From a virus: a stretch of DNA of 24,151 nucleotides. Made by a program: the position numbers and the translations under genes. Location of the stretch: positions 1 through 24,151 of the IMG/VR virus record IMGVR_UViG_3300009701_000002. One strand, 5' to 3'. Below the pieces are notes generated by a model, which did no database searches, had not been told where the DNA came from, and saw nothing but the letters and a program-made list of their open reading frames with translations. This document shows, piece by piece, positions 1 to 24,151 of the stretch; position 1 is the stretch's first letter, and each line of letters starts with the position of its first letter.

Positions 1-123
1 CTTTGTTGGTTTTCGGTTAAGTCGTAAGCATAGTAGAGTTCCTCACAAGACATTTCTTCGTCTTTCATGTCTTTCTCCTGATCTCTCGTTCGAATTCGTC
101 CATTTCATTAATAACTTCTAATA
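1..123. repeat. Terminal direct repeat, copy 1 (identical to 24029-24151). Contains the 5' end of the 150-aa paralog (its ATG is at 66-68 on the minus strand).
   Basis: Base-by-base reading shows 1-123 equals 24029-24151. The repeat lies inside coding sequence, at the junction of two paralog genes. Confidence 0.9.
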
Positions 124-523
124 ACAATTCTTTGTAATCTTTGGCGTAGGGGGCGTGGGCATAGGCCCAGAAGGAGCCATAACCGACGGCGCCACATACG
201 GCGCAAATTGCGGCGAAATATATGGCTTCCTCCGATGCCACCCTGATACTATTCGAATCAGAAAGGTAAGAACCGCGCGGCAAGTAAGAATCATAATGGT
301 GGCGGGCGAAGAAAAAGGCTTTTTGTAATTCTTCTTTTGTAGATTGGCCTTTAATATAGCGCTCTACGACTTCGAGAGTTTTAATTACAATTTTATTTAT
401 TTCTTCATCTTTTGATTTTTCTAGCCAATATCTTGATATTTTTACAAGCCATTTCCTATTCTGGTTTTCGCTCAGGTCGTAAGCATTGTATAGTTCTTTT
501 AAAGTCATTTTTTTGTGGTTCAT
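65..523 (-). CDS. Hypervariable-core paralog P1 (152 aa), unknown function
   Basis: Shares an N-terminal block (LKELYxAYDLSENQxRKWLVK...ERYIKGQxTKEEL) and a C-terminal block (YKELLLEVINEMDEFEREIRRK) with five other ORFs. ATG 521-523 overlaps the upstream stop as ATGA. GAGG Shine-Dalgarno (SD) upstream. Confidence 0.85.
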   Translation of the reverse strand: MNHKKMTLKELYNAYDLSENQNRKWLVKISRYWLEKSKDEEINKIVIKTLEVVERYIKGQSTKEELQKAFFFARHHYDSYLPRGSYLSDSNSIRVASEEAIYFAAICAVCGAVGYGSFWAYAHAPYAKDYKELLLEVINEMDEFEREIRRKT

Positions 524-1671
524 GGTTTGACCTCTATGTTAATGGAACTGCCCCAAGACACTGGGGGTTTTTGAGTGCCAACTATAGCCCATAGAACAGG
601 ATAATTGGGACGTTTAATTTCTTCATTATCATAGCAGTCCATATCACCAAAATAGATTAATCCGTCTATAGCAATTCTTTGCTTATTAAACCAATCAAAA
701 GCTGGCTGGTAAGCCGTACCGCCCCTTCCTTTAATACTATACTTTTTCTTAGGATCAAATACGTAGCTATTCTTAACTTCGGCGTCCGCTTCCACGACTG
801 TCACTGTGGCGTATTTAGCTATTTCCGCGATTTCTGACATAAATTGGGTTAAAGCCTCGTCTGATACGCTTCCAGATGTGTCTATAGCAACTCCTAATTT
901 CAACCTTTCGATTTTTATATCACCGGGGATTGAAATGCCATATCTCCTGTTGCGCTTTTTTCTAGAGCTTTCAATGAAATATTCGACTTGTCTAGCTACG
1001 AAGCGCTTTAATTCTGCTCTCCAATCACGCGACGAGGCGTTTAACTTGGATACTAACAGCTCGTCATCACTACTCATTTTTCCAGCGCTTCTTGTGTTTT
1101 GGGCGGCCTCGTTAACCGCGTTTCTAATCTTTTGCCGCAAAGCATCAGTACTTTCTTCGGAATCGTCCCACAAGGGATGGCCGTCGTAGTCAGACCAATC
1201 TTTTGCTTTTTTGGATTTCTTTAAATTTTCATGATACCATTCCATGGTTTCCCCGTCGGGTAAGTCATAGAGAGCGGGCATTACAGCGAGAGAAGGAATA
1301 TTTGGAATACCGGGGTTAATGGAAAGATCACAGGCGACATTTATGAAGCGGTGTTTCATATTGTCAATCACGGCATCAGCCAGGTCTCTTTTTTTAGAAG
1401 AATATACATCGGGGGCTACTTCCCTTGAACGCGGTATATGATCGTGTAATATATGCTGGCATTCGTGTTTAAGAACAGCTACTTGCTCGGCGGGGGTTAA
1501 TTTATCAAAAAACTCCAAATTTACAAATAATTCTATTCGGTCTTTAATTCTTACGCCCGCCGTGTCAATAGATTTCGTTATTTTACGGTCCATTTGCATG
1601 ATAAGTTCACCATAGAAACGTTCCGATTCAAAAAGTCTAAGAATAGCTTTTGTAAGTGAATCTGCGCTCAT
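520..1671 (-). CDS. VWA-domain protein with an N-terminal HExxH metallopeptidase-like domain (DUF2201-like architecture)
   Basis: HECQHILHDH (HExxH) in the N-terminal half. MIDAS-like motif GVAIDTSGSVS in the C-terminal half. AAGGAG SD. ATGA overlaps at both ends. Confidence 0.8.
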   Translation of the reverse strand: MSADSLTKAILRLFESERFYGELIMQMDRKITKSIDTAGVRIKDRIELFVNLEFFDKLTPAEQVAVLKHECQHILHDHIPRSREVAPDVYSSKKRDLADAVIDNMKHRFINVACDLSINPGIPNIPSLAVMPALYDLPDGETMEWYHENLKKSKKAKDWSDYDGHPLWDDSEESTDALRQKIRNAVNEAAQNTRSAGKMSSDDELLVSKLNASSRDWRAELKRFVARQVEYFIESSRKKRNRRYGISIPGDIKIERLKLGVAIDTSGSVSDEALTQFMSEIAEIAKYATVTVVEADAEVKNSYVFDPKKKYSIKGRGGTAYQPAFDWFNKQRIAIDGLIYFGDMDCYDNEEIKRPNYPVLWAIVGTQKPPVSWGSSINIEVKP

Positions 1672-2105
1672 GCATTTCTCCTTATTTCTCGTTCAAACTC
1701 ATCCATTTCGTTAATAACTTCTAATAACAATTCTCTATATGAATTGTAGAAACGATCGTAAAAAGAATATGGTTGTTCGGAATTGTAAACGATTTGATCA
1801 GTGTAAATGGCCACCCTGGAAAAGGCAGCTCTGGCTGCGTAAGCAAGAGTTCCTGCATGATCGTACGTCATTGACCAGTAGGTACCGTAAGCGGCGTGCA
1901 ATTCTTCTTCTGTGGCTTGCTTTTTAGTGTAACGCTCCGCCACGTCTAAAATTTTTTTTGCAATTTTATTTATTTCTTGATCGGTTGATTTATTCATCCA
2001 ATATTTAGCGATTTTTACAAGCCATTTCCTTTGTTGGTTTTCACTCAAGTCGTAAGCGTCGTAGAGTTCTTTTAAAGACATTTCTTCGTGTTTTTTGTGG
2101 CTCAC
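1668..2105 (-). CDS. Hypervariable-core paralog P2 (145 aa)
   Basis: Same conserved termini as P1. GTG start overlaps the MoxR stop (GTGA). An ATG at 2081 is an alternative start. Confidence 0.8.
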   Translation of the reverse strand: MSHKKHEEMSLKELYDAYDLSENQQRKWLVKIAKYWMNKSTDQEINKIAKKILDVAERYTKKQATEEELHAAYGTYWSMTYDHAGTLAYAARAAFSRVAIYTDQIVYNSEQPYSFYDRFYNSYRELLLEVINEMDEFEREIRRNA

Positions 2106-3202
2106 GACGCACCTTTTGCTTCCTTTGTCATTTTAATTAAAATGTCTCTGTACTTTGGTTTGCTGTAAAAATCTTTGAAAATAGAATGCTCTAATTTTAT
2201 GATTTTTTTGATAGTCATAACCATAATGTCGCGAGGAATTGTAGTGAAATACTCCATAAGAGCCGCTTCTTCGTCTTTAGTAAAAGGTTGTTTATCTGTT
2301 TCGCGCTGCACGATATAATCGCGTAAATTGTCACCGGTAATCCCTAAGAGGCTCGAAGCTATGTTTTCAGGGTTAGACCATGTCTTTACTTTATTTAACC
2401 CGCTGCCGTTAAGGACTTCTGCCCCAGTCAAAGGTTTGTCTACGTTTTTTAAATGGAGTTCGTAAGCGACACTTCGCTCCAGACCTATTATACCGTGCAT
2501 GAGCTGGCTTAAAATATTATTTGGAACTCCAAGTTTAAAAAGTCTGTTAAGACGCTCGTAAGACCTTCTATCGACTTTTACTTGAAGATCAAAATTACTA
2601 TGTTTGTCTTCAAGAAAACTGGGCTGTTCTTTCAAAAAGCTAAGGATTGTAGGCTCAAAACTATTGCCTTTGGCGTATTCCATAAACTCTTCAAAGCTAG
2701 GTTCGAGTTTTATGTGCACAAACCGGGACATAAGTGCTGTGTCATTGACGTCTGTTACAAAGTATTCGTCTGTTGGTGGGTTACCGGCAGCAATGATGTG
2801 GCAGTTTTTTGGCAGTTTAATAGTGTGAAAAGTCTTGTCTAACGCCAAAGAGAACATACCGTTTAAAACGTCGCGTCTCGCCCGGTTAAACTCGTCCAAA
2901 AAGATAATAGCGCCGCTATCGGGGTTTTGTTCGCAGTAACGGATTGCGTCGTTAAGCCATTTAGGAGTCGCGAAATTTGTGGATTTGCTGCCGTCGCCGT
3001 TATCAACAAACTCAGCTAACCCCAAAACATCCCCTAAATCGCTTTGAGTGCCTAAATATAGCGGGAAAAAGTGGTAACCTTTACTCTGGGCGTATTGTTT
3101 GACGATAGAGGACTTTCCGATACCGGCTCGGCCCCAAAGAAACGCCGTTGTTTGGGCTTCGAAAAGATACGGAAGAGCAGTAGTCAAATCCTTGATATTC
3201 AT
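2102..3202 (-). CDS. MoxR/AAA_5-type AAA+ ATPase
   Basis: Walker A GRAGIGKSS. Walker B IIFLDEFNRA. Sensor-1-like IIAAGNP. Lies one gene upstream of the VWA partner, with paralog P2 between them. AAGGAAAG SD. Confidence 0.85.
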   Translation of the reverse strand: MNIKDLTTALPYLFEAQTTAFLWGRAGIGKSSIVKQYAQSKGYHFFPLYLGTQSDLGDVLGLAEFVDNGDGSKSTNFATPKWLNDAIRYCEQNPDSGAIIFLDEFNRARRDVLNGMFSLALDKTFHTIKLPKNCHIIAAGNPPTDEYFVTDVNDTALMSRFVHIKLEPSFEEFMEYAKGNSFEPTILSFLKEQPSFLEDKHSNFDLQVKVDRRSYERLNRLFKLGVPNNILSQLMHGIIGLERSVAYELHLKNVDKPLTGAEVLNGSGLNKVKTWSNPENIASSLLGITGDNLRDYIVQRETDKQPFTKDEEAALMEYFTTIPRDIMVMTIKKIIKLEHSIFKDFYSKPKYRDILIKMTKEAKGAS

Positions 3203-3616: not shown

Positions 3617-3850
3617 TCAGGACTTTAGGCTATTGTTGAATTTATTTTTAAAAAATTCTACTACCTTGTCTTCAACTGACTTTACATGACGCTCAAATCC
3701 TTCCAGATCGTTTATGGCTTTTGTCTCAATCTGGTCCAACAAAAGCCTTACACTGTTACGTAAATTCCCGACTATATGGATTTCTGCGCCGCTCGTACAG
3801 TTACGAAGCGTCTCTTCTAAAGTCTCTAGCCTCTGTTTGTAGTCTATCAT
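3617..3850 (-). CDS. Hypothetical helical protein (77 aa)
   Basis: ATGA overlap with the upstream gene. No recognisable motif. Confidence 0.6.
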   Translation of the reverse strand: MIDYKQRLETLEETLRNCTSGAEIHIVGNLRNSVRLLLDQIETKAINDLEGFERHVKSVEDKVVEFFKNKFNNSLKS

Positions 3851-4425
3851 ACGCTGCTCGTACGTTTAGAAAGGCCGCTAACAAGCTCCATGAACTCTTG
3901 CATCGTCATTTTACCGGGTAAAGGGAACATGACGTTCTCGTTATCCACTATTAAAGTCAGGCCGACTTCGTAGTACCTAGCCTTTTTAGTTTCCTGTGGC
4001 ACGACTTTAGTAACTTCAGGTTGTACGGCAGCCGGTATTGGTAATTTGGTGAACTTAGGTTTGACTTCTTGCTTTTTTAGTGACTTATTTTGGGCCACAG
4101 CTGACATTCCTATACTTTGCAAAGTCATTGTTATACCGCCAAGCGAACGAAGCTTCCCACGAGGACTGAATTCAAGCTTACCGATACCGGATTGGCTCAT
4201 GAATTTCAGCTCAGCGCCTAACTGCTCTCGGCTAAACTCAAAGCCTTCTTTAGCCAGTGCTGTCTTTAAATTATGAATAGAGATTCTTTTCGTTGAACGT
4301 TCCCGCAAGGCAAAGACATGGCACATAGCGTTAAACGTCTCAGAAGACTTGGCGCGGTCTTGGAGTCTATTTATTAGAGTCGTGTTACCGTTGGCTGCTG
4401 CGGAAGTTACCATTGAAATTTCCAT
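3847..4425 (-). CDS. Hypothetical protein (192 aa)
   Basis: The ORF-track start at 4446 is a TTG. The ATG at 4423-4425 is preceded by AAAGGA plus a 6-nt spacer, so I moved the start to 4425. Confidence 0.7.
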   Translation of the reverse strand: MEISMVTSAAANGNTTLINRLQDRAKSSETFNAMCHVFALRERSTKRISIHNLKTALAKEGFEFSREQLGAELKFMSQSGIGKLEFSPRGKLRSLGGITMTLQSIGMSAVAQNKSLKKQEVKPKFTKLPIPAAVQPEVTKVVPQETKKARYYEVGLTLIVDNENVMFPLPGKMTMQEFMELVSGLSKRTSSV

Positions 4426-4593
4426 TTTACATCCTTTGTTTACCAACCGTGATTGGTTGATGATTATGGTTTATGCGAAGGATGTGCCACAGTCAATGCG
4501 GTTATAATTGATCTGGGCTTAAGCCTGTGTCAAAAGTCTTGTCGGAGGCCGTAAAATGTGAGGATTGTGGAAAGCCTTTGTGACGTGCAGCTG

Positions 4594-4620
4594 AATAAAA
4601 AAGCCCCCGTGAGGGGGCGC
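4594..4620 (-). terminator. Rho-independent terminator (minus strand)
   Basis: Minus-strand RNA reads GCCCCC-ucac-GGGGGC followed by UUUUUUAUU. It sits immediately 3' of pentamer array A. Confidence 0.85.
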
Positions 4621-4715
4621 AAAACAAAACATAACTTAACTAAACTCAACGTAACGCAACTCAACGCAACTAAACGTAACTTAACTTAACGCAACGAAAC
4701 GCAACTTAACTGAAC
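4621..4715 (-). repeat. Pentamer array A: 19 contiguous NNAAC units on plus (GUUNN in the minus-sense RNA)
   Basis: Read directly: aaaac aaaac ataac ttaac taaac tcaac gtaac gcaac tcaac gcaac taaac gtaac ttaac ttaac gcaac gaaac gcaac ttaac tgaac. Phase is never broken. Lies between the stop at 4747 and the terminator. Confidence 0.95.
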
Positions 4716-4746
4716 GCAAAAATTTTATTCAATATAAATTAAGTAA

Positions 4747-5283
4747 CTATTTTTCTCCGCGAAGCAAAGCTAGGGCTTTTAACTCATAATTAGCTTGGGC
4801 AATATAAGTCGCGTCTTTTACAGTTAACTTTTTTGAACCGTAAGCGTGATTTAAAAGTTGTGCGATGGCGCTGGTAGCCAATATTTTCGAGGTCACGATT
4901 TGTTTAAGATCAGCGCTGACTTGATCAAGGTCAATGTGTTCTAAACGCTTCCCAGTTTTTTCAACAGCGCTTATTAATTTAGTCTTTGCCTCGTCGTTAG
5001 CTGCATTATATTGGTTCTCGCCGGCGATTAGCTCGTACCCTTCGCCGTGTAAACGTTTTAAGCGCTTTTTGAGTTGACCGCCGATTTGCGGCTCCATGGA
5101 GCGGATACAGCTTTTAATTTCTGAAAGCTCAAGAGTTAAATTATTCTGTGTGCACATATCTTGTAGCGCGGAGTCTGTTAACTGTACCCCAGCTTGGGCG
5201 CTTGTTAAGTGTGACATAAGAATTTTTTTAAATTCTTCTCGTTTTACTTTTTTAGTAGCGTTTTTATCTGTACTTGTTAACAT
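4747..5283 (-). CDS. Hypothetical helical protein (178 aa)
   Basis: ATG preceded by a perfect AGGAGG. Flanked by pentamer arrays B (5') and A (3'). Confidence 0.8.
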   Translation of the reverse strand: MLTSTDKNATKKVKREEFKKILMSHLTSAQAGVQLTDSALQDMCTQNNLTLELSEIKSCIRSMEPQIGGQLKKRLKRLHGEGYELIAGENQYNAANDEAKTKLISAVEKTGKRLEHIDLDQVSADLKQIVTSKILATSAIAQLLNHAYGSKKLTVKDATYIAQANYELKALALLRGEK

Positions 5284-5285
5284 CT

Positions 5286-5320
5286 AATCCTCCTAGGATT
5301 GGTTAAAAAAATAGCGTAGC
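5286..5320 (-). promoter_or_regulatory. 5' leader: SD-sequestering hairpin (AAUCCU-AGG-AGGAUU) plus a conserved 17-mer box
   Basis: Inverted repeat at 5286-5300 includes the SD. The 17-mer taaaaaaatagcgtagc (5304-5320) is identical to 5941-5957. Confidence 0.6.
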
Positions 5321-5370
5321 AAAACACAACGCAACATAACTTAACTAAACAAAACACAACTAAACTTAAC
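5321..5370 (-). repeat. Pentamer array B: 10 contiguous NNAAC units
   Basis: aaaac acaac gcaac ataac ttaac taaac aaaac acaac taaac ttaac, bracketed by atagc/gtagc pentamers. Confidence 0.95.
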
Positions 5371-5386
5371 ATAGCTGAGAAAAAAA

Positions 5387-5920
5387 TCATTTTACAGTAA
5401 ATCTGCCGTATTCTGGACGATAATCGCCTACGCCTATAAATTTACCACCAACGTCTAAAAGTTCAAGTAAAATCTCGGGCGGAAACTGCTTTTCATCTGC
5501 AATTATGACATTAAGCGTTCCCGACCAGTCTTCAAGCTTAGGCCAAATCCTTAATATTTTTTTAGTGCCGTTCATACCGACAAAAGCCTGATGTTTATTT
5601 ACCTCGCTCACCGGTTGCTTTAAAAGCATGGAATCCGTAATAAATAGCACCGAATCAACTAAATCGGCGTATCCGCTTCGCTTGCCGGGTTGTTTAATAC
5701 CTGAGAATTTTGCGGCAGCTTTTAATGTTCCTTTCCAGACTCGGCTCGGAATGGCGAGCTTACCTCCTTCTAAATACATACGGGCGTTAAACATTTCGTC
5801 TCCCGCTTCCCAATCCTCGTGCTTTGTGCGCGCCGGCTTAGTTTTGGCCGTAAGCATCGAATTGATGTTATTCATTAACAGAGGCGTTACTGACTTTATC
5901 CCGTAGCTGACCGTTTTCAT
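5387..5920 (-). CDS. Hypothetical protein (177 aa) with RAMP-like motifs (tentative)
   Basis: Start moved to the ATG at 5918-5920 (MKTVSYG...), preceded by AGGAGG. The ORF-track N-terminal extension runs through the SD. The motifs AIPSRVWKGTLKAAAK and the C-terminal GVGDYRPEYGRF resemble the RAMP KG-x-LR motif and glycine-rich loop. Confidence 0.75.
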   Translation of the reverse strand: MKTVSYGIKSVTPLLMNNINSMLTAKTKPARTKHEDWEAGDEMFNARMYLEGGKLAIPSRVWKGTLKAAAKFSGIKQPGKRSGYADLVDSVLFITDSMLLKQPVSEVNKHQAFVGMNGTKKILRIWPKLEDWSGTLNVIIADEKQFPPEILLELLDVGGKFIGVGDYRPEYGRFTVK

Positions 5921-5957
5921 ATACCCTCCTAGGTATTTCTTAAAAAAATAGCGTAGC
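5921..5957 (-). promoter_or_regulatory. 5' leader: SD-sequestering hairpin (AUACCU-AGGA-GGGUAU) plus a conserved 17-mer box
   Basis: Same layout as 5286-5320 with compensatory stem changes. The 17-mer is identical. Confidence 0.6.
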
Positions 5958-5997
5958 AAAACATAACAAAACTGAACAGAACTAAACTCAACTTAAC
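5958..5997 (-). repeat. Pentamer array C: 8 contiguous NNAAC units
   Basis: aaaac ataac aaaac tgaac agaac taaac tcaac ttaac. Confidence 0.95.
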
Positions 5998-6026
5998 ACA
6001 TTACTAAGTTACTTATCGGAAGGTTG

Positions 6027-6167
6027 CTAGGAAACTTTAACTTTTTTAGTAGAAATATTTTTATTGTCTAAATCTGGGAATTTCTCTAAAGACCTACGAC
6101 GGCAGTTGCAATCTGGTAGTTTTGAATTGCACCGTGGGTAGATGCAGGAGTTTTTATTAGAGTTCAT
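6027..6167 (-). CDS. Small Cys-rich ORF (46 aa; MNSNKNSCIYPRCNSKLPDCNCRRRS...), not in the ORF track
   Basis: Hand translation. ATG overlaps the stop of P3 as ATGA. Four Cys in CxxxxC...CxC spacing. Confidence 0.45.
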   Translation of the reverse strand: MNSNKNSCIYPRCNSKLPDCNCRRRSLEKFPDLDNKNISTKKVKVS

Positions 6168-6583
6168 ATTTTTCTCCTTATTGTACGTTCAAACTCATCC
6201 ATTTCGTTAATCACTTCTAATAACAATTCTTTATAATCACTGGCACAGTAGGAATGATTCGTACGGCAATAACAGGAAACGGCGAAAGCAAGGTCACTGT
6301 TGTCAAGCGTGGCACATTCCGAAAGGCGGGAGGCGCCAGCGATGTTCAAGTCGTAGGAGCTGGAGGCCTCATGGTAAACTAATAGTAATTCTTCTTTTGC
6401 GGCTTCGCCTCTGATGTATTTCTCTACGATTTCTAGATTTTTATTTATAATTTTATTTATTTGTTCATCTTTTGATTGTTTTAGCCAATGTCTTGTTGTT
6501 TTTACAAGAAATTTCCTTTGTTGTTTTTCGGTTAGGTCGTAAGCCTCATGGAGTTCTTTTAAAGACATGTCTTGGTCTTTCAT
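6164..6583 (-). CDS. Hypervariable-core paralog P3 (139 aa)
   Basis: Conserved termini. ATGA overlap with P4. AAGGAGAAAG SD embedded in the last codons of P4. Confidence 0.85.
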   Translation of the reverse strand: MKDQDMSLKELHEAYDLTEKQQRKFLVKTTRHWLKQSKDEQINKIINKNLEIVEKYIRGEAAKEELLLVYHEASSSYDLNIAGASRLSECATLDNSDLAFAVSCYCRTNHSYCASDYKELLLEVINEMDEFERTIRRKI

Positions 6584-7008
6584 ATCTTTCTCCTTATCTC
6601 TCGTTCAAATTCATCCATTTCGTTAATAACTTCTAATAAGAATTTTTTCGACTCGAATTGAACCCAACTGTTTGCTTTTACTATGAAACGCCAATTAGCT
6701 TCTGGAGAAAGAATTATCTCTTTTGCGGCGACGGCAAAAGCTACGCAAACGAATTCATTGCCGCGGTATCGAATGCCCTTGGCCAAGTTTCGTGCTTCTT
6801 CTAGTTCTTTTTTTGTGGATTGGCCTTTAATGTAGCGTTCTACGACTTCTAAACCTTTTGTTAAGATTTCGAGGGATTTTTTGTCTTTTACGTTTTCTAG
6901 TTCACCTTTTGCTACTTTGACAAGAAATTTTCTTAACTGGTTTTCGCTCAGGTCGTAAGCAGTGTAGAGTTCGTCTGAAGACATGTCTTGGTCTTTTTTG
7001 TTGTTCAT
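6580..7008 (-). CDS. Hypervariable-core paralog P4 (142 aa)
   Basis: Start moved to the ATG at 7006-7008 (MNNKKDQDMSS...). This matches the other paralog N-termini, and the longer ORF-track version runs into the terminator hairpin. Confidence 0.75.
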   Translation of the reverse strand: MNNKKDQDMSSDELYTAYDLSENQLRKFLVKVAKGELENVKDKKSLEILTKGLEVVERYIKGQSTKKELEEARNLAKGIRYRGNEFVCVAFAVAAKEIILSPEANWRFIVKANSWVQFESKKFLLEVINEMDEFEREIRRKI

Positions 7009-7042
7009 ATAATAATACATTACTACAGAATTATGATTATTC

Positions 7043-7075
7043 AAAATAAAAAAGCCAGGATTTTTAGTCCTGGCT
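7043..7075 (-). terminator. Rho-independent terminator after the capsid gene
   Basis: Minus-strand RNA reads AGCCAGGA-cuaaaaa-UCCUGGCU followed by UUUUUAUUUU. Confidence 0.85.
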
Positions 7076-7100
7076 CAAAATAGCTAAATTAAGCTATTAA

Positions 7101-8296
7101 TTAAGCTGATAATTGAACAACGCAGTTCCATCCCGGGGCACTACAGATGAGGTTCCCGTAATAGCCGATGCGAATCTCAAGGGCGTCGGCGTTACCAACA
7201 CGCAGTCCTTCGAGACCTTCCATTCCATACGTCAGGATATGCGGTACTTTGCCCAAGGAGCGAAGTTTCCACGTATTCATAGTAAGGAGGTACGCAGTCT
7301 GGGGAGGGCAGCTACGATCAGCCAACACGGTCACGCGACCATATGCGGACTGGAACGTAATACCTTCGAATGCGACTTCAACTTCATCGTGGTTGACTTG
7401 AACGTACTGGACTTTAGCGCCCAAAGCGTTTACAAGTGCGGCATACGATGCGAAGTCCATGATGCAAAGGTCTGGTTTTCCGCCTTCACGGTTCAAGAAT
7501 GCCAACGCGTTCGTCAGACCTTCCTCGATGGTGTAGGCCTGTGCGTTATAGCGACAGCCAGCCAAACGAGTAGGATCAGCAGAACGGTTAACGCCCCAGA
7601 ACGAGTCGTTAGCAGCAGGGCTAGTAACAGGCAACCAAGCAGCTAAGCCGCTCAAAGCGAGGTACGAGCCAGTGTTGCTAGCGCCAGTTGCCGGCAAGTC
7701 ACCAGAAACGGTGAGGTAAGCCAATCCAGTTCCGATAGCCCAGTTACCAGACAAAGTAGCAGCCGAAGCTGTTCCGTTGATTACACCGGTTGCACGGTTA
7801 ACTGCAGTGATCAGCACGGTGTCCGTCGAAGGAGCTCCACCATCAGAAGCCGAAGCAACTAACAGCATTCCAACTTCGAAAGCAACGATTTGCTGAGCGT
7901 TGGTCAAAGGAAGGGTTACACCACCGGGTGCAATACCGCCGACTTGGCTAGAAGCAGCCGAGGAAACGCCACGGGTAGCAGTACCAGAACCAAACAACTC
8001 AAAAGCGATGTTGTTAGTAATGTTACGGAAACCGCCGTCCATTTGAAGCTTAGCAGCGTCAACAAAAGCGCCTGCATTTGTCTTAGTCTGTTCCATCAAC
8101 AAGTTAGTGATAGTAACTAATTGATAGTCTTCGATTACGTACACGAAGTACGAAACAAGTGCTGTAGGCGTTTGCTGTGCTTGCGCGTTAGCAAACTGGT
8201 GAGAACGACCCTGGGGGGTTCCATACTCAAGGGGGACTGGTATGTATTTACCAGCGAACCCGTCTGGGCTTTCATTTTTTGGTACAAGGGCTAAGA
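7101..8296 (-). CDS. Major capsid protein, exon 2
   Basis: The frame stays open upstream of the ORF-track GTG (8144) to 8296 without any start codon (..FLALVPKNESPDGFAGKYIPVPLEYGTPQGRSHQFANAQAQQ..). Position after portal and scaffold, higher GC than neighbours, terminator downstream. Confidence 0.8.
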
Positions 8297-9030
8297 CAAA
8301 TTGTTATCGTGCTGGCTTTTTATCCTGCACTTCTAATGCTTAGAGAGCTTTATTAGACTTTCGTCTATTTTGCTCGACAGTTAAATACTGTAAGTTCCAA
8401 GGAACATGCAGACCTTTAACGTTCTTTCCTTGAAGCGGTATAATATGATCTACTTCACAGCCTTCTGGACAATTGATATAGATTAATTCCATATCTCTGA
8501 GTTGTGTTTCAGATAGCCAGTAAGGAGTAGCATTCAGCTTAGCGGCTTGGTACTTTCGGGTTTTAGCTAATACTTTTTTATTATTAGCTTTATTCCAATT
8601 TGACTTACTATTTTTTACGGCTTGGGGGTTTTCTTTGACGTACTTGTCTTTGAGTGCCTTTGATCGCTCTGGATTCTTTTGTCTCCAAGCTGTTCCGTAT
8701 TTTTTAAGTCTACCTTGCTCGTTTTTGCATGCCTTACACCAACTGTTAAGCCCATTTAGATTTCTAGCGTCTTTCGAAAAATCGCTAAATTCTTTAGACT
8801 TTGTGCATTTAGTGCAAGTTTTCATACCCTTCTTCGCATTAGTTCGGCGTACATTTTCAACTCGTAAAAGTTGCCTACCACTCTTGGTACTATTTTATTC
8901 TAGCATTATCCCTGCTAGGTTCAAGTACTACGCTCTACACTGGTACAGTCTTATTATGGACCATACTTAGCACGGTATTAGCATTTCAGCCTTCACCGTT
9001 TTTGGTTGGTTTTAAATCCCCGCTTAATCC
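8297..9030 (-). mobile_element. Group I-like self-splicing intron (734 nt) carrying an HNH homing endonuclease ORF
   Basis: - P1 helix: exon AAAUCCCU (9038-9031) pairs with intron GGGGAUUU (9021-9014), with a G-U wobble at the splice-site U.
- The intron ends in G (8297).
- Joining the exons restores the frame: ..KENP-F-LALVPK.
- A 7-bp helix, CUAAUGC (8842-8836) with GCAUUAG (8339-8333), loops out the ORF. Confidence 0.75.
8340..8825 (-). CDS. HNH homing endonuclease (161 aa)
   Basis: N-terminal CxxC...CxxC zinc motif. C-terminal EVDHIIP...HVPWNLQYLTVEQNRRKSNK (the H-N-N/H core). Has its own SD (GAAGAAGGG). Confidence 0.85.
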   Translation of the reverse strand: MKTCTKCTKSKEFSDFSKDARNLNGLNSWCKACKNEQGRLKKYGTAWRQKNPERSKALKDKYVKENPQAVKNSKSNWNKANNKKVLAKTRKYQAAKLNATPYWLSETQLRDMELIYINCPEGCEVDHIIPLQGKNVKGLHVPWNLQYLTVEQNRRKSNKAL

Positions 9031-10378: not shown

Positions 10379-12268
10379 TTATGCTTGGGGGGTTGCGTTA
10401 GGGACTAAAGGACTCTGTGGCTGTGGTTGGGGTTGGGCCTGAGGCGGATTGGCCATAGGCATAGGTGGAGGCATGGCGGCTTGTTTAATGGCTTGTAATT
10501 GGTTAAAGAAATCACGGAGTTTTTCAGCCTTTGATTCTTCTAACTTGGCCTGGGTATATAGATTTATATACTGGGTCGTCAGCGTTGTGGCTAAGGCTAT
10601 GTCCATAAACGGATCTGGCGGGGTGTATTTACCAGACTCTACGATTTCGTCTAGGATTTGTAAGATACGTTCTTCTGAGGCGTTAGCAAGCTTTTCGACC
10701 TGCTCTAGATCTGGGTAGTCTAATAGCCTCCTGCCTTCTTGGAGGCTTACCATACCGCTTTGGACCATCTCGGTGACTTTTTGGAGACGGCCTGCTGGGT
10801 CTTTAGGTAGACTACTCTGGGTGAAACACTGGATTACGAAATCGTCGTGTATTAACGCCGCTTTAGGAAGGTCAATTTCTTTTGTACCGTTTTTATTAGG
10901 ATAGACGGTCTGATACTCTCCGTCGCGAATTGCGATATCTTTAGCCAAATCAATAACCTGATAGGCAAGATCGATAAAGCAGTTATCATACCGACGGGAC
11001 AGAGACGCGAAACGATCTGTTGAAATATCATCATAGGTCCTGATCGCTTCACCACTATCAAGACCTTGTGGCTTTTGAGAGGACGCCTGCAAAGCAGACA
11101 CTCCGGATTGCTGATAACCATATTGTATAAGCTTGTCTCGTTCTGCGTATAACTCGGGCGCATTACAAGGAGCAACCTCGTAACTCGGTTTAGTTCCACG
11201 ATACTTGACAATGACTCCGACCTCGTTATTATGAGCGGCAGCCATAACTTTTGAACCGTCCTCTTGAAATACTCGAGGAACACCAACAAGCTTAATAGCA
11301 CGAGATATAGTGAACAAAATACTGTTAAGCTCCATTTGCGTACCCATGAGTTGTTCAGCGACTCCCTGGGACCAAAAGCCAAGTAACCGAGGGCTATAAT
11401 GGAGAAAAGTAAAAGGAAAGCGATCTTTAGTATATTCCTCATCGATTAAGCTTCCTGCGCTACACGCCAACGTATGCCGTCCGTCATTGACATTTTTACC
11501 AGACGGTAAAGACCAGCCCTCTACAACCATTACTAAATCGGATACGGTTTTTGAGCTATCAGCGGAATTGTCTGGGAAAGCTTTTGCCGCCATAGCAATC
11601 TTGTCTTTAAATTTAGGGAAATTAGCAAATAAGACGTCCCTATCGATGAGTTTGATCCGGTATATACGTCTCGGCTCTCCGTACATGCTTTCGTTGGGGT
11701 CTACAAGTAATTCCGTTAATAGGACTCGCTCTAGGCCTACTTTTCTGTCAGGGGTCTCAAACGTATGGAATACGCCTGTCCCTGCCACTAAAGCGTCCCT
11801 AAGGACTATAGGAGCCAAGTCATAAGCCTTTGTCTGGTAAAACTCTCCCAAAAGGAAGTTGTTTAATTTCTTGGCTAGGTTTCTTTGCTTATAATCAGCG
11901 TTGTCAGTTAAAAACACCGGTTGGGGCCTGGATTGCGAGATACGCGATACCAGGGTATCTACTACGCTTTGGATGAGGTTAAACGTAGGCCGCTCCATTG
12001 GAAGGCCGTAATTCTGATCCATTTTGCTAATATTGTTACCGGCAAAGGAATAGAGGCTTTGGTTACCATAGAGTCTTGCGTAAACCGCGGTTTGTCTATA
12101 CCGGTAAGTCTGTGTTTCTTTTAAATATGCTGCTTTGGTAAGCATCTCCGCTGCGCATTTATCGCTGTCTTCGGCTTCCCACCATTTTGCTAGCGTAGTC
12201 GTTTCGTCGACGTTACGCGTCTTCATGGTGATTTTAGAGGGCGGTCCTTTGGCGTTGCTGACTTTCAT
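10379..12268 (-). CDS. Portal (head-tail connector) protein (629 aa)
   Basis: Size and position upstream of scaffold and capsid, downstream of the terminase region. P/Q-rich C-terminal tail. Assigned by synteny only; no diagnostic motif was readable by eye. Confidence 0.65.
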   Translation of the reverse strand: MKVSNAKGPPSKITMKTRNVDETTTLAKWWEAEDSDKCAAEMLTKAAYLKETQTYRYRQTAVYARLYGNQSLYSFAGNNISKMDQNYGLPMERPTFNLIQSVVDTLVSRISQSRPQPVFLTDNADYKQRNLAKKLNNFLLGEFYQTKAYDLAPIVLRDALVAGTGVFHTFETPDRKVGLERVLLTELLVDPNESMYGEPRRIYRIKLIDRDVLFANFPKFKDKIAMAAKAFPDNSADSSKTVSDLVMVVEGWSLPSGKNVNDGRHTLACSAGSLIDEEYTKDRFPFTFLHYSPRLLGFWSQGVAEQLMGTQMELNSILFTISRAIKLVGVPRVFQEDGSKVMAAAHNNEVGVIVKYRGTKPSYEVAPCNAPELYAERDKLIQYGYQQSGVSALQASSQKPQGLDSGEAIRTYDDISTDRFASLSRRYDNCFIDLAYQVIDLAKDIAIRDGEYQTVYPNKNGTKEIDLPKAALIHDDFVIQCFTQSSLPKDPAGRLQKVTEMVQSGMVSLQEGRRLLDYPDLEQVEKLANASEERILQILDEIVESGKYTPPDPFMDIALATTLTTQYINLYTQAKLEESKAEKLRDFFNQLQAIKQAAMPPPMPMANPPQAQPQPQPQSPLVPNATPQA

Positions 12269-23034: not shown

Positions 23035-23171
23035 TTCTGTTCTCCTTTGTACTTTGGACAGTATTCGCTATGCTTGTCTGATGAAATGCTAGCACAACCG
23101 CATTCGCATTGCAAATAATCCTTCCATAACTTTTGGTGTTTAGGAACCGGTAATCTAACTATTTCTTTCAT
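23016..23171 (-). CDS. Small Cys-rich ORF (51 aa; ..YLQCECGCASISSDKHSEYCPKYKGEQKC..), not in the ORF track
   Basis: Hand translation. ATGA overlap with the stop of P5. Contains the SD of the next gene. Confidence 0.45.
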   Translation of the reverse strand: MKEIVRLPVPKHQKLWKDYLQCECGCASISSDKHSEYCPKYKGEQKCKPVK

Positions 23172-23647
23172 GTCTTTCTCCTTATTATGCGTTCAAATTC
23201 ATCCATTTCGTTAATGATTTCTAATAACATTTTTTTGTAACCGGCGGCGCTGTAGGTGTAGGCATAGTCGGTCGGCCAAACGGCGGCATGGGCGAAAGCT
23301 AAAGCGGCATAGGCGGTGTCGGCGGCGTCAAAGGCGTAGGTGATGGCCCAAGCGGCGGCTTGGCCCAAGGCGGAGTTGAAAGCGAAGTTGGGGTCGGAAG
23401 CGACAACGACGGCAGCCCAAGCAACGCCGGCCGCTTTTTGTAAATCTTCTTTTGTAGCTTGGCCTTTTATATAACGTTCTACAATATCTAGAGTTTCAAT
23501 TACGACTTTATTTGTTTCTTCATCTTTTGATTTTTCTAGCCAATATCTTGATATTTTTACAAGCCATTTCCTTTGTTGTTTTTCGCTCAGGTCGTATGAT
23601 TCATAAAGTTCTTGGCAAGACATTTCTTCGTCTTTTTTGCGGTTCAC
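23168..23647 (-). CDS. Hypervariable-core paralog P5 (159 aa); Ala/Trp/Tyr-rich core
   Basis: Conserved termini. GTGA overlap with P6. Confidence 0.85.
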   Translation of the reverse strand: MNRKKDEEMSCQELYESYDLSEKQQRKWLVKISRYWLEKSKDEETNKVVIETLDIVERYIKGQATKEDLQKAAGVAWAAVVVASDPNFAFNSALGQAAAWAITYAFDAADTAYAALAFAHAAVWPTDYAYTYSAAGYKKMLLEIINEMDEFERIIRRKT

Positions 23648-24096
23648 ATCTTTCTCCTTATGATGCGTTCAAACTCATCCATTTCGTTAATCACTTCTAG
23701 TAACAACTCTTTGTAACCGTCGGCGGAGCGAGCGGCGACGGCGTAGACGGTGGCGGCGTAGGCGGCGGAGGCGGCGGAGGCGGCGGCGTAGGCGGTGGCG
23801 TCGTAGGCGGCGGTGGTGGAGGCGTAGGCGGCGTAGGCGGCGGAGCGAGCGGCGTAGGCGGCGTAGGCGGCGGCGTAGGCGGCGGCGGAGGCTTTTTTTA
23901 ATTCTTCTTCTGTAGCTTGGCCTTTAATATATTTTTCTACAACATCTAGAGTTTCAATTACGACTTTATTTAATTTTAGATTGATTGATTTTTTTAACCA
24001 ATGTCTTGATATTTTGATAAGCCATTTCCTTTGTTGGTTTTCGGTTAAGTCGTAAGCATAGTAGAGTTCCTCACAAGACATTTCTTCGTCTTTCAT
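23644..24096 (-). CDS. Hypervariable-core paralog P6 (150 aa); Ala/Tyr repeat core
   Basis: Conserved termini. The core is AAAYAAAYAAYAARSAAYAAYA.... Its ATG overlaps the stop of the duplicated P1 3' end (24093-24151). Confidence 0.85.
   Translation of the reverse strand: MKDEEMSCEELYYAYDLTENQQRKWLIKISRHWLKKSINLKLNKVVIETLDVVEKYIKGQATEEELKKASAAAYAAAYAAYAARSAAYAAYASTTAAYDATAYAAASAASAAYAATVYAVAARSADGYKELLLEVINEMDEFERIIRRKM
23716..23889 (-). repeat. GC-rich, triplet-periodic, imperfect tandem repeat encoding the Ala/Tyr core of P6
   Basis: The plus strand is built from reiterated gcggcgtaggcggc / ggcggagg units, inside otherwise AT-rich flanks. Confidence 0.8.
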
Positions 24097-24151
24097 GTCT
24101 TTCTCCTGATCTCTCGTTCGAATTCGTCCATTTCATTAATAACTTCTAATA
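24029..24151. repeat. Terminal direct repeat, copy 2 (identical to 1-123). Includes a duplicated partial 3' end of P1 (24093-24151, minus strand).
   Basis: Identical to 1-123 on direct reading. Confidence 0.9.

Follow-up and report, generated by a model that had tools for sequence, protein, structure and literature searches.

A multicopy Imm5-like gene family of a metagenomic phage, with hypervariable cores probably built from in-frame coding repeats

The window analyzed here, a 24,151-nt stretch of viral DNA (positions 1 to 24,151 of IMG/VR record IMGVR_UViG_3300009701_000002), encodes six small paralogous proteins, P1 to P6, in which conserved ends enclose a hypervariable core. Profile comparison identifies the six genes as a lineage-specific expansion of a very divergent Imm5-like branch, rather than as demonstrated immunity proteins. 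In the reading that we favor, and consider reasonably probable, their cores are in-frame coding minisatellites that expand, scramble, and then decay, with conserved blocks around them. The six copies are the following.

Positions 65 to 523, minus strand: P1, 152 amino acids, core at 137-316, after the VWA/metallopeptidase gene with a 4-nt overlap.
Positions 1668 to 2105, minus strand: P2, 145 amino acids, GTG start, core at 1740-1889, between the genes for a MoxR-like AAA_5 ATPase and a DUF2201 VWA protein, with 4-nt overlaps.
Positions 6164 to 6583, minus strand: P3, 139 amino acids, core at 6236-6376.
Positions 6580 to 7008, minus strand: P4, 142 amino acids, the most diverged copy, core at 6652-6792, the first gene after the major capsid protein gene.
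Positions 23168 to 23647, minus strand: P5, 159 amino acids, GTG start, core at 23240-23431 with a GC content of 0.66.
Positions 23644 to 24096, minus strand: P6, 150 amino acids, core at 23716-23889, a degenerate GCC/TAC tandem array with a GC content of 0.80.

The preliminary description had placed six copies at these positions, totaling about 2.7 kb or 11% of the unit and sharing two terminal blocks, and in these respects it stands. All six are intact minus-strand open reading frames (ORFs) whose translations carry the motifs quoted there, the genes sum to 2679 nt (11.1% of 24028 nt), and an N-terminal block of ~70 amino acids (N block) and a C-terminal block of 23 amino acids (C block) are present in every copy. 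The start of P4 was set at 7008 to fit the paralogues, the mechanical ORF extending to 7044. Mean pairwise identity is 60% for amino acids and 75% for nucleotides in the N block, 82 and 84% in the C block, and 19 and 38% in the cores, which range in length from 47 to 64 amino acids. Every member has the same three-part layout: an N-terminal helical block that ends in the motif V-x-E-[KR]-[YW]-x-x-G-x-[AS]-T-x-E-E-L, a middle part rich in Ala, Ser, Tyr, and Thr, and a C-terminal helix, which reads LLExINEMDEFER in the window family. Together with four copies on sister contigs (Q1 to Q3 and R1), the family has at least 10 members. The ORF list, the sole source used for this point, holds no consistent antisense ORF in the cores.

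The cores had been described as unalignable by eye, and they did not become alignable once gaps were allowed. Gapped DNA alignments of the cores of the six copies and of Q1-Q3 and R1 scored no better than codon-shuffled controls over the 45 pairs, with a highest z of 3.0. The pair P6 and Q1 illustrates the point well, as their N blocks are 94% identical, yet the alignment of their cores gives a z of only 0.1.

The manner in which the cores are built is visible in their codons. Their GC content is 0.43-0.80 compared with ~0.30 in the blocks, and C occupies 62% of their four-fold sites; the blocks around them have 23% and the remaining genes 25%. Among core codons, GCC (128 occurrences), TCC (40), and TAC (35) are the most frequent, together with GCT and ACC, and the leading amino acids are Ala (31%), Ser (13%), Tyr (9%), and Thr (7%). 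Codons ending in C make up 55 of the 58 in the P6 core and 38 of the 39 that lie beyond the shared lead-in in R1 (C3 of 0.97). The entropy of the third codon position in six of the cores is 0.17-1.49 bits, whereas the lowest value in 522 control windows drawn from the remainder of the 24,151 nt is 1.66. For codon positions 1, 2, and 3 the entropies are 1.35, 1.18, and 0.29 in P6 and 1.65, 0.56, and 0.17 in R1. Tandem Repeats Finder detected tandem arrays in P6, Q3, and R1, and the same three cores are self-similar above what their codon composition gives (R1 at a lag of 42, p = 0.010; Q3, p = 0.004; P6, p = 0.034), a signal that is absent from the cores of complex sequence.

These properties change in a graded way across the family. 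Core GC content, third-position C, and the fraction of GCC all rise with the similarity of the N blocks (Spearman 0.87-0.89, n = 10). At one end are the cores of P6, R1, Q1, Q3, and P5, here called young, which are GC-rich and of low complexity, have GCC as 30-52% of their codons, and follow N blocks that are 85-94% alike; at the other end are the old cores of P1, P3, P2, Q2, and P4, with complex sequence. A life cycle of three steps would produce such a series. A few units of the GCC type (GCC, TCC, ACC, TAC) would first be amplified into a core, so that a near-fixed third base would require very few mutations. The array would then be scrambled by slippage and internal duplication, and AT-biased point mutation would slowly erode it into ordinary complex sequence, with the protein retaining its Ala/Ser/Tyr/Thr-rich character during the decay. 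Gene conversion of the N blocks would add mosaicism to the outcome.

Whole-unit insertions and deletions are not visible within the window's own family, the cores of which are too scrambled. They can be seen in L004, one of a group of related phages with genomes of 57-61 kb, in which the cores consist of GCG GCC NAC (AGC) units; the paralogues P0010 and P0103 of this phage have N blocks that are ~94% identical and cores that differ by unit indels of 12, 33, 12, and 3 nt. In a second relative, L010, 50 of 52 and 53 of 56 core codons end in T. The copies with these other fixed third bases lie at 6493-6939 and 8001-8444 in L010 and at 5374-5937 and 10001-10480 in L004, and the variable codons of L004 are nearly all one step from AAC (TAC, CAC, GAC, AGC). 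Directly after P0010, L004 also has a 76-amino acid ORF (10550-10780) that has only the C-terminal helix motif SITLIEKIIYDL in common with the family, its N-terminal part being unrelated, and may be a remnant or a fusion.

The affiliation of the family rests on distant homology. A profile search of 5.8e9 proteins returned nine members only, the six copies and Q1-Q3, on two contigs, and no relatives of the window family were found in IMG/VR or in the GTDB genomes. Among the PHROGs the sole match was that of P6 to phrog_18326, a family of unknown function (5.5e-6), and an exact look-up of P0007 yielded no record. HMMER searches of 1.84e9 representatives did reach distant relatives, with E values of 7e-9 and weaker, which are 130-190 amino acids long and have the same three-part layout. 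When the family profile was compared by hhalign with 15 of these relatives, the two aligned over 140 columns with 99.5% probability (E of 1.6e-22), and a comparison with a set of 23 proteins aligned N-block residues 20-81 with 97.1% probability (E of 6e-11); all 23 of the latter match PF21805, with a best E value of 5e-17. A search seeded with the relatives gathered 916 proteins at E ≤ 1e-5, many of them with PF21805 (Imm5_like), PF14423 (Imm5), or PF22011 (DUF6931), the last of which matches some relatives of the window family. Phage genomes of widely varying size encode the relatives in their early or accessory parts, often in several copies, and GenBank phages have almost none. By these comparisons the superfamily consists of small all-helical proteins of 130-190 amino acids that are common in uncultured phages. 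A full-text search of one library of papers for "Imm5-like" or "PF21805" found none.

An Imm5-like layout had been suggested in the preliminary description, and the profile-profile link to PF21805 proteins bears this out at the level of the superfamily. The window family and the PF21805 and PF14423 proteins are alike small and all-helical, and alignments and the sequences of genuine Imm5-like members show that both groups have N-terminal helices that end in (I/V)E.AE.W..G.AT.EE(L/V), that is, a helical domain closing with G-x-(A/S)-T-x-E-E-(L/V), followed by Ala/Tyr/Trp-rich repeats. All PF21805-positive sequences that were inspected have an Ala/Tyr-rich stretch, which is covered by the Pfam match in P0025 and P0114. 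The window family nevertheless differs from typical Imm5-like members in that its N block is without the Cys-x-Cys-Ala ("FAC.CA") signature, in having its own strongly conserved acidic C-terminal helix, LLEVINEMDEFER, and in being phage-encoded, present in at least 10 copies, and without a toxin partner.

Structure prediction may point in the same direction. The AlphaFold models are all-helical, with predicted template modeling scores of 0.77 for P5 and 0.74 for P4, and helices are predicted across the cores. The predicted local distance difference test (pLDDT), averaged over 10-residue blocks, is 85-94 in the conserved blocks and 47-75 in the cores (65-68 in the better P4 model). In BFVD the top match is an uncultured-phage protein, A0A6J5RNF9, annotated as an "Imm-5-like domain-containing protein" (probability 1.00, template modeling (TM) score of 0.62, root mean square deviation of 3.7 over 133 columns), although with an E value of only 0.12. 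On these models, the blocks may form a constant helical base or scaffold, with the core as a variable helical part.

Several results weigh against the reading as a whole. None of the Pfam hidden Markov models, PF21805 and PF14423 included, matches the six proteins even at E ≤ 1, so that the suggested resemblance is supported only indirectly; no NCBIfam or PADLOC model matches them either. A Foldseek search of the PDB gave nothing significant, the best match being chain B of 7JTU at E values of 0.37-0.49, and searches by sequence found no relative among solved structures. No toxin gene adjoins any copy in the window or in the relatives examined, and an immunity or anti-defense role is therefore an analogy only. 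As regards the cores, the repeat signal in the young ones is modest (p of 0.004-0.03) and five cores have none, the ordering into young and old assumes that N-block similarity measures age, an assumption that gene conversion can break, and the aromatic residues of the cores show no significant helical spacing.

Given that the blocks are conserved in the DNA, it had been proposed that they serve as recombination handles for the swapping of cores. A repeat finder does detect a 5' block of ~200 nt and a 3' block of ~70-100 nt, but the conservation acts on the protein. By the Nei-Gojobori method over all copy pairs, the rates of nonsynonymous (dN) and synonymous (dS) change are 0.22 and 0.47 in the N block (dN/dS of 0.46) and 0.10 and 0.72 in the C block (dN/dS of 0.14). 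What purifying selection maintains in both blocks is the protein rather than the DNA. The C block, with the exception of its last 15 nt, freely gains silent changes and is therefore a poor candidate for a DNA recombination handle. What survives of the proposal concerns the N block. The distances between copies in the N block do not correlate with those in the C block (rho = -0.01), several pairs are significantly mosaic, among them P6 and Q1 with differences at 11 of 198 N-block sites and 11 of 69 C-block sites (p = 0.011), and a 123-nt junction between copies occurs unchanged at two loci that, to judge from synteny, are separate. Gene conversion among the N blocks is therefore likely. Such conversion accounts for the similar ends of the copies but does not explain the origin of core diversity.

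A stronger version of this proposal, in which old and unrelated cores move between copies as cassettes by homologous recombination, would be compatible with the discordant histories of the two blocks, with the junction shared by the ends of two contigs, and with the unrelated cores that P6 and Q1 carry behind nearly identical N blocks. We consider it unlikely, as the C block offers only 69 nt of silently diverged DNA for pairing, no core is common to two copies although repeated exchange should give such sharing, and the cores look locally generated in view of their fixed third position, elevated GC content, and internal repeats.

Alternatively, function may reside in the N and C blocks only, with the core a tolerated linker that drifts and slips and with copy number reflecting selfish duplication or dosage. 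The lower pLDDT of the cores, their failure to align better than shuffled sequence, and the lack of a periodic pattern in their aromatic residues are what such neutral filler would give, and slippage alone accounts for the variation in length. This too has, in our estimation, only a small chance of being correct. The reading frame is kept in all 10 copies with core length held at 47-64 amino acids, and the Ala/Ser/Tyr/Thr-rich composition is retained by very distant relatives as well as by old cores, whose codon usage is normal. The helices that AlphaFold predicts across the cores, and the Ala/Tyr-rich stretch shared by PF21805-positive proteins, also speak against a mere spacer.

A third possibility, codon-phased targeted hypermutation of the kind exerted by a diversity-generating retroelement (DGR), or by something new, would randomize codon positions 1 and 2 and spare position 3 to yield stop-proof NNC or NNT codons. 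The position-wise entropies of P6 and R1 have this form, NNY codons prevail in three phage lineages that differ in the letter that is fixed, and the single-step neighborhood of AAC in L004 is suggestive of it. We nonetheless regard this explanation as very improbable. No reverse transcriptase was found among the scanned window proteins or is listed for the relatives, no template-like repeat of any core exists within the window, and the cores, unequal in length and unalignable, are unlike the variable regions of DGRs. Moreover, GCC is far too frequent in the young cores for a random NNC mix, and if a few units were amplified, the fixed third base needs hardly any mutations.

A DGR target in the strict sense was considered and rejected, as there is no reverse transcriptase in the scanned window proteins (the genome being incomplete), no template repeat, and no equality of length among the variable regions. 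The likeness to DGR targets lies in a hypervariable stretch within a conserved protein and in stop-proof NNY codons; the differences, beyond the missing reverse transcriptase and template, are the variable length and a helical fold rather than a C-type lectin or Ig fold. Coding tandem repeats that stay in frame offer a closer comparison. These include contingency-type repeats and triplet repeats of the CGG/CCG class, and what they share with the minisatellite-like cores are arrays based on (GCC)n, indels in multiples of three between close paralogues, and internal duplications. The present arrays differ from them in being imperfect and in having a central position within a folded helical protein; with age they seem to turn into ordinary sequence, and no on/off switching is implied.

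The remaining alternative, that GC-rich cores or some of the copies are assembler chimeras within a repeat family, is suggested by three contig ends that fall within family repeats, by the end of contig L002 inside the R1 core, and by the spurious circular closure of the window, but it is extremely improbable given six intact ORFs with both blocks in frame, a Logan contig that is 100% identical over 6192-7306 (although probably assembled from the same reads), and the recurrence of the architecture across unrelated samples and assemblers.

The assembly itself was clearly affected by the family. The junction repeat, which we call J, occurs at both ends of the window.

Positions 1 to 123, minus strand: junction repeat J, 123 nt, with the same sequence as 24029-24151 and the end of contig Ga0116228_10001531.
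Positions 24029 to 24151, minus strand: second instance of J, the source of the apparent circular closure.

J consists of the last 18 codons and the stop codon of one copy followed by the first 21-22 codons of the next, the stop of the former overlapping the start of the latter as ATGA, and the window accordingly has partial copies at its edges (the first 21 codons at 1-64 and the last 18 at 24097-24151). The same sequence forms positions 1-123 of L001 (Ga0116228_10001531), a 19.3-kb contig of the same metagenome. Since J recurs at the end of a second contig, the 24-kb "unit" is an assembly product, not a closed genome. L001 has the three copies Q1-Q3 in tandem and, beyond them, large genes that lack domain annotation and lie in the position of tail genes, and a third contig, L002, encodes endonuclease VII, a metallophosphatase, a lytic transglycosylase, and the truncated copy R1, within the core of which it terminates. 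By tblastx, L001 and L002 are collinear with the 57-61-kb relatives L003, L004, and L010. The order implied by this synteny is L002, then the window (P6, P5 ... polymerase ... capsid, P4, P3 ... AAA, P2, VWA, P1), and then L001 (Q1-Q3, tail genes), and the collinearity suggests that the phage genome is probably ~50-60 kb in size with at least 10 copies in three clusters. Together these data indicate that the assembler broke, and falsely closed, the genome at family repeats, splitting it at family copies into at least three contigs. Repeat families of this kind disrupt metagenome assemblies and, as in this case, can yield false circular genomes.

Each copy also appears to carry signals for the gene that follows it. 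The 3' end of all six reads AT[A/C] AGG AGA AAN NN[A/G] TGA, as in the following example.

Positions 65 to 82, minus strand: 3'-end motif with a Shine-Dalgarno-like AGGAG/AAGGAG and, overlapping the stop codon of the copy, the start (ATG or GTG) of the next gene.

The corresponding positions in the other copies are 1668-1685, 6164-6181, 6580-6597, 23168-23185, and 23644-23661. AGGAG is present in six of six copies, and AAGGAG in five, ~7 nt before ATGA or GTGA, and the conserved C-terminal Arg-Arg-Lys codons double as a candidate ribosome-binding site of the next gene; this is the stretch that escapes the free silent change seen in the rest of the C block. Judged from these motifs, each copy would supply a ribosome-binding site and a start codon for the following gene and thus could join a translationally coupled operon without breaking it.

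All sizeable ORFs of the window lie on the minus strand, and the gene set is that of a tailed phage, with a family-A DNA polymerase, a DnaB-type primase-helicase, a large terminase, a portal protein, a dATP/dGTP pyrophosphohydrolase, an SU10-type major capsid protein, a MoxR-like AAA_5 ATPase, and a DUF2201_N/DUF2201 protein. No tail genes are recognizable in the window. Searches of GenBank phages gave no DNA or protein match for the window, P5, or the portal protein, and the terminase matches there distantly only. The neighbors of the copies are phage genes, namely those for the capsid, the MoxR ATPase, the VWA protein, and the dATP/dGTP pyrophosphohydrolase, and two of them recur beside the family.

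Positions 2102 to 3202, minus strand: MoxR-like AAA_5 ATPase, a neighbor of the paralogue family in the window and in related phages.
Positions 520 to 1671, minus strand: DUF2201_N/DUF2201 protein (putative metallopeptidase and VWA-like domain), between P2 and P1.
Window 520-3202, L004 5374-8217, and L010 4249-8444: ATPase/VWA region with Imm5-like copies.

Copies thus lie beside or inside this ATPase/VWA pair in three related phages, an association that may reflect inherited gene order rather than a functional link.

Two further observations concern other parts of the window. The major capsid protein is 87% identical in amino acids to its L004 homologue (L004 449-1663), and the similarity reaches 53 codons (8145-8303, minus strand) upstream of the first ATG, GTG, or TTG, which is the GTG at 8144. 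This extended similarity begins right after an in-frame TAA, and the window has GTA where L004 has its GTG start; the reason may be either an unusual start codon or an error in the sequence. In addition, arrays with a period of 5 nt, (AACNN)n on the plus strand and (NNGTT)n on the coding strand, occupy three intergenic gaps at 4618-4719, 5298-5390, and 5935-5998. Each array closely precedes a gene on the minus strand (3847-4446, 4747-5283, and 5387-5959), two of the three gaps also share TTAAAAAAATAGCGTAGCAAAAC, and the arrays may be promoter or leader elements.

As to what the copies do, two known systems offer analogies. Zhang et al. (2012, PMC3482391) list Imm5 as the immunity family for DYW deaminase and CdiA-CT toxins; the polyimmunity loci of polymorphic toxin systems lie on bacterial chromosomes and frequently combine several immunity families. 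The window resembles such loci in its tandem paralogous small genes of immunity type without an adjacent toxin gene; it differs in that a single family is present, in three places of a lytic-type phage genome, with the variability in a repeat-built core. SsdAI (PDB 7JTU chain B), which confers immunity to the DYW-family deaminase toxin SsdA, contacts its toxin via a protrusion (PMC7901873). It is all-helical likewise, is the best PDB match for the P4 model and ranks ninth for the other model, and has a protrusion that resembles the role proposed for the core, but the match is not significant (TM scores of 0.38-0.41) and no sequence link was found. Because of the analogy with Imm5-type immunity proteins and tandem polyimmunity arrays, we infer that the copies may form a panel of binders that neutralize different toxins of hosts or competitors, or defense effectors, early in infection.

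A bolder proposal is that of a built-in diversity generator in this phage clade, in which stop-proof in-frame repeats would continually remake the core of a stable helical scaffold to give each phage a private, fast-evolving panel of binders against host toxins or defense effectors, an RT-free counterpart of DGR targets or of the variable lymphocyte receptors of lampreys. Repeats of triplet or 9-12-nt units with a fixed third base would suit this purpose in that they cannot create stop codons. We rate the proposal as a whole as decidedly doubtful.

Imm5-like proteins are a large, little-studied family in uncultured phages and can expand to at least 10 copies per genome. The family described here is distinctive in its heavy paralogue expansion, in a core that has a fixed third base and is probably repeat-generated, and in its embedded start signal for the next gene. 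Only one region of these proteins is variable, and the codons of that region point to how the variability arises. If the copies do bind host toxins or defense proteins, they would represent a new class of phage counter-defense, and also a compact helical scaffold of natural origin whose binding region can be exchanged.

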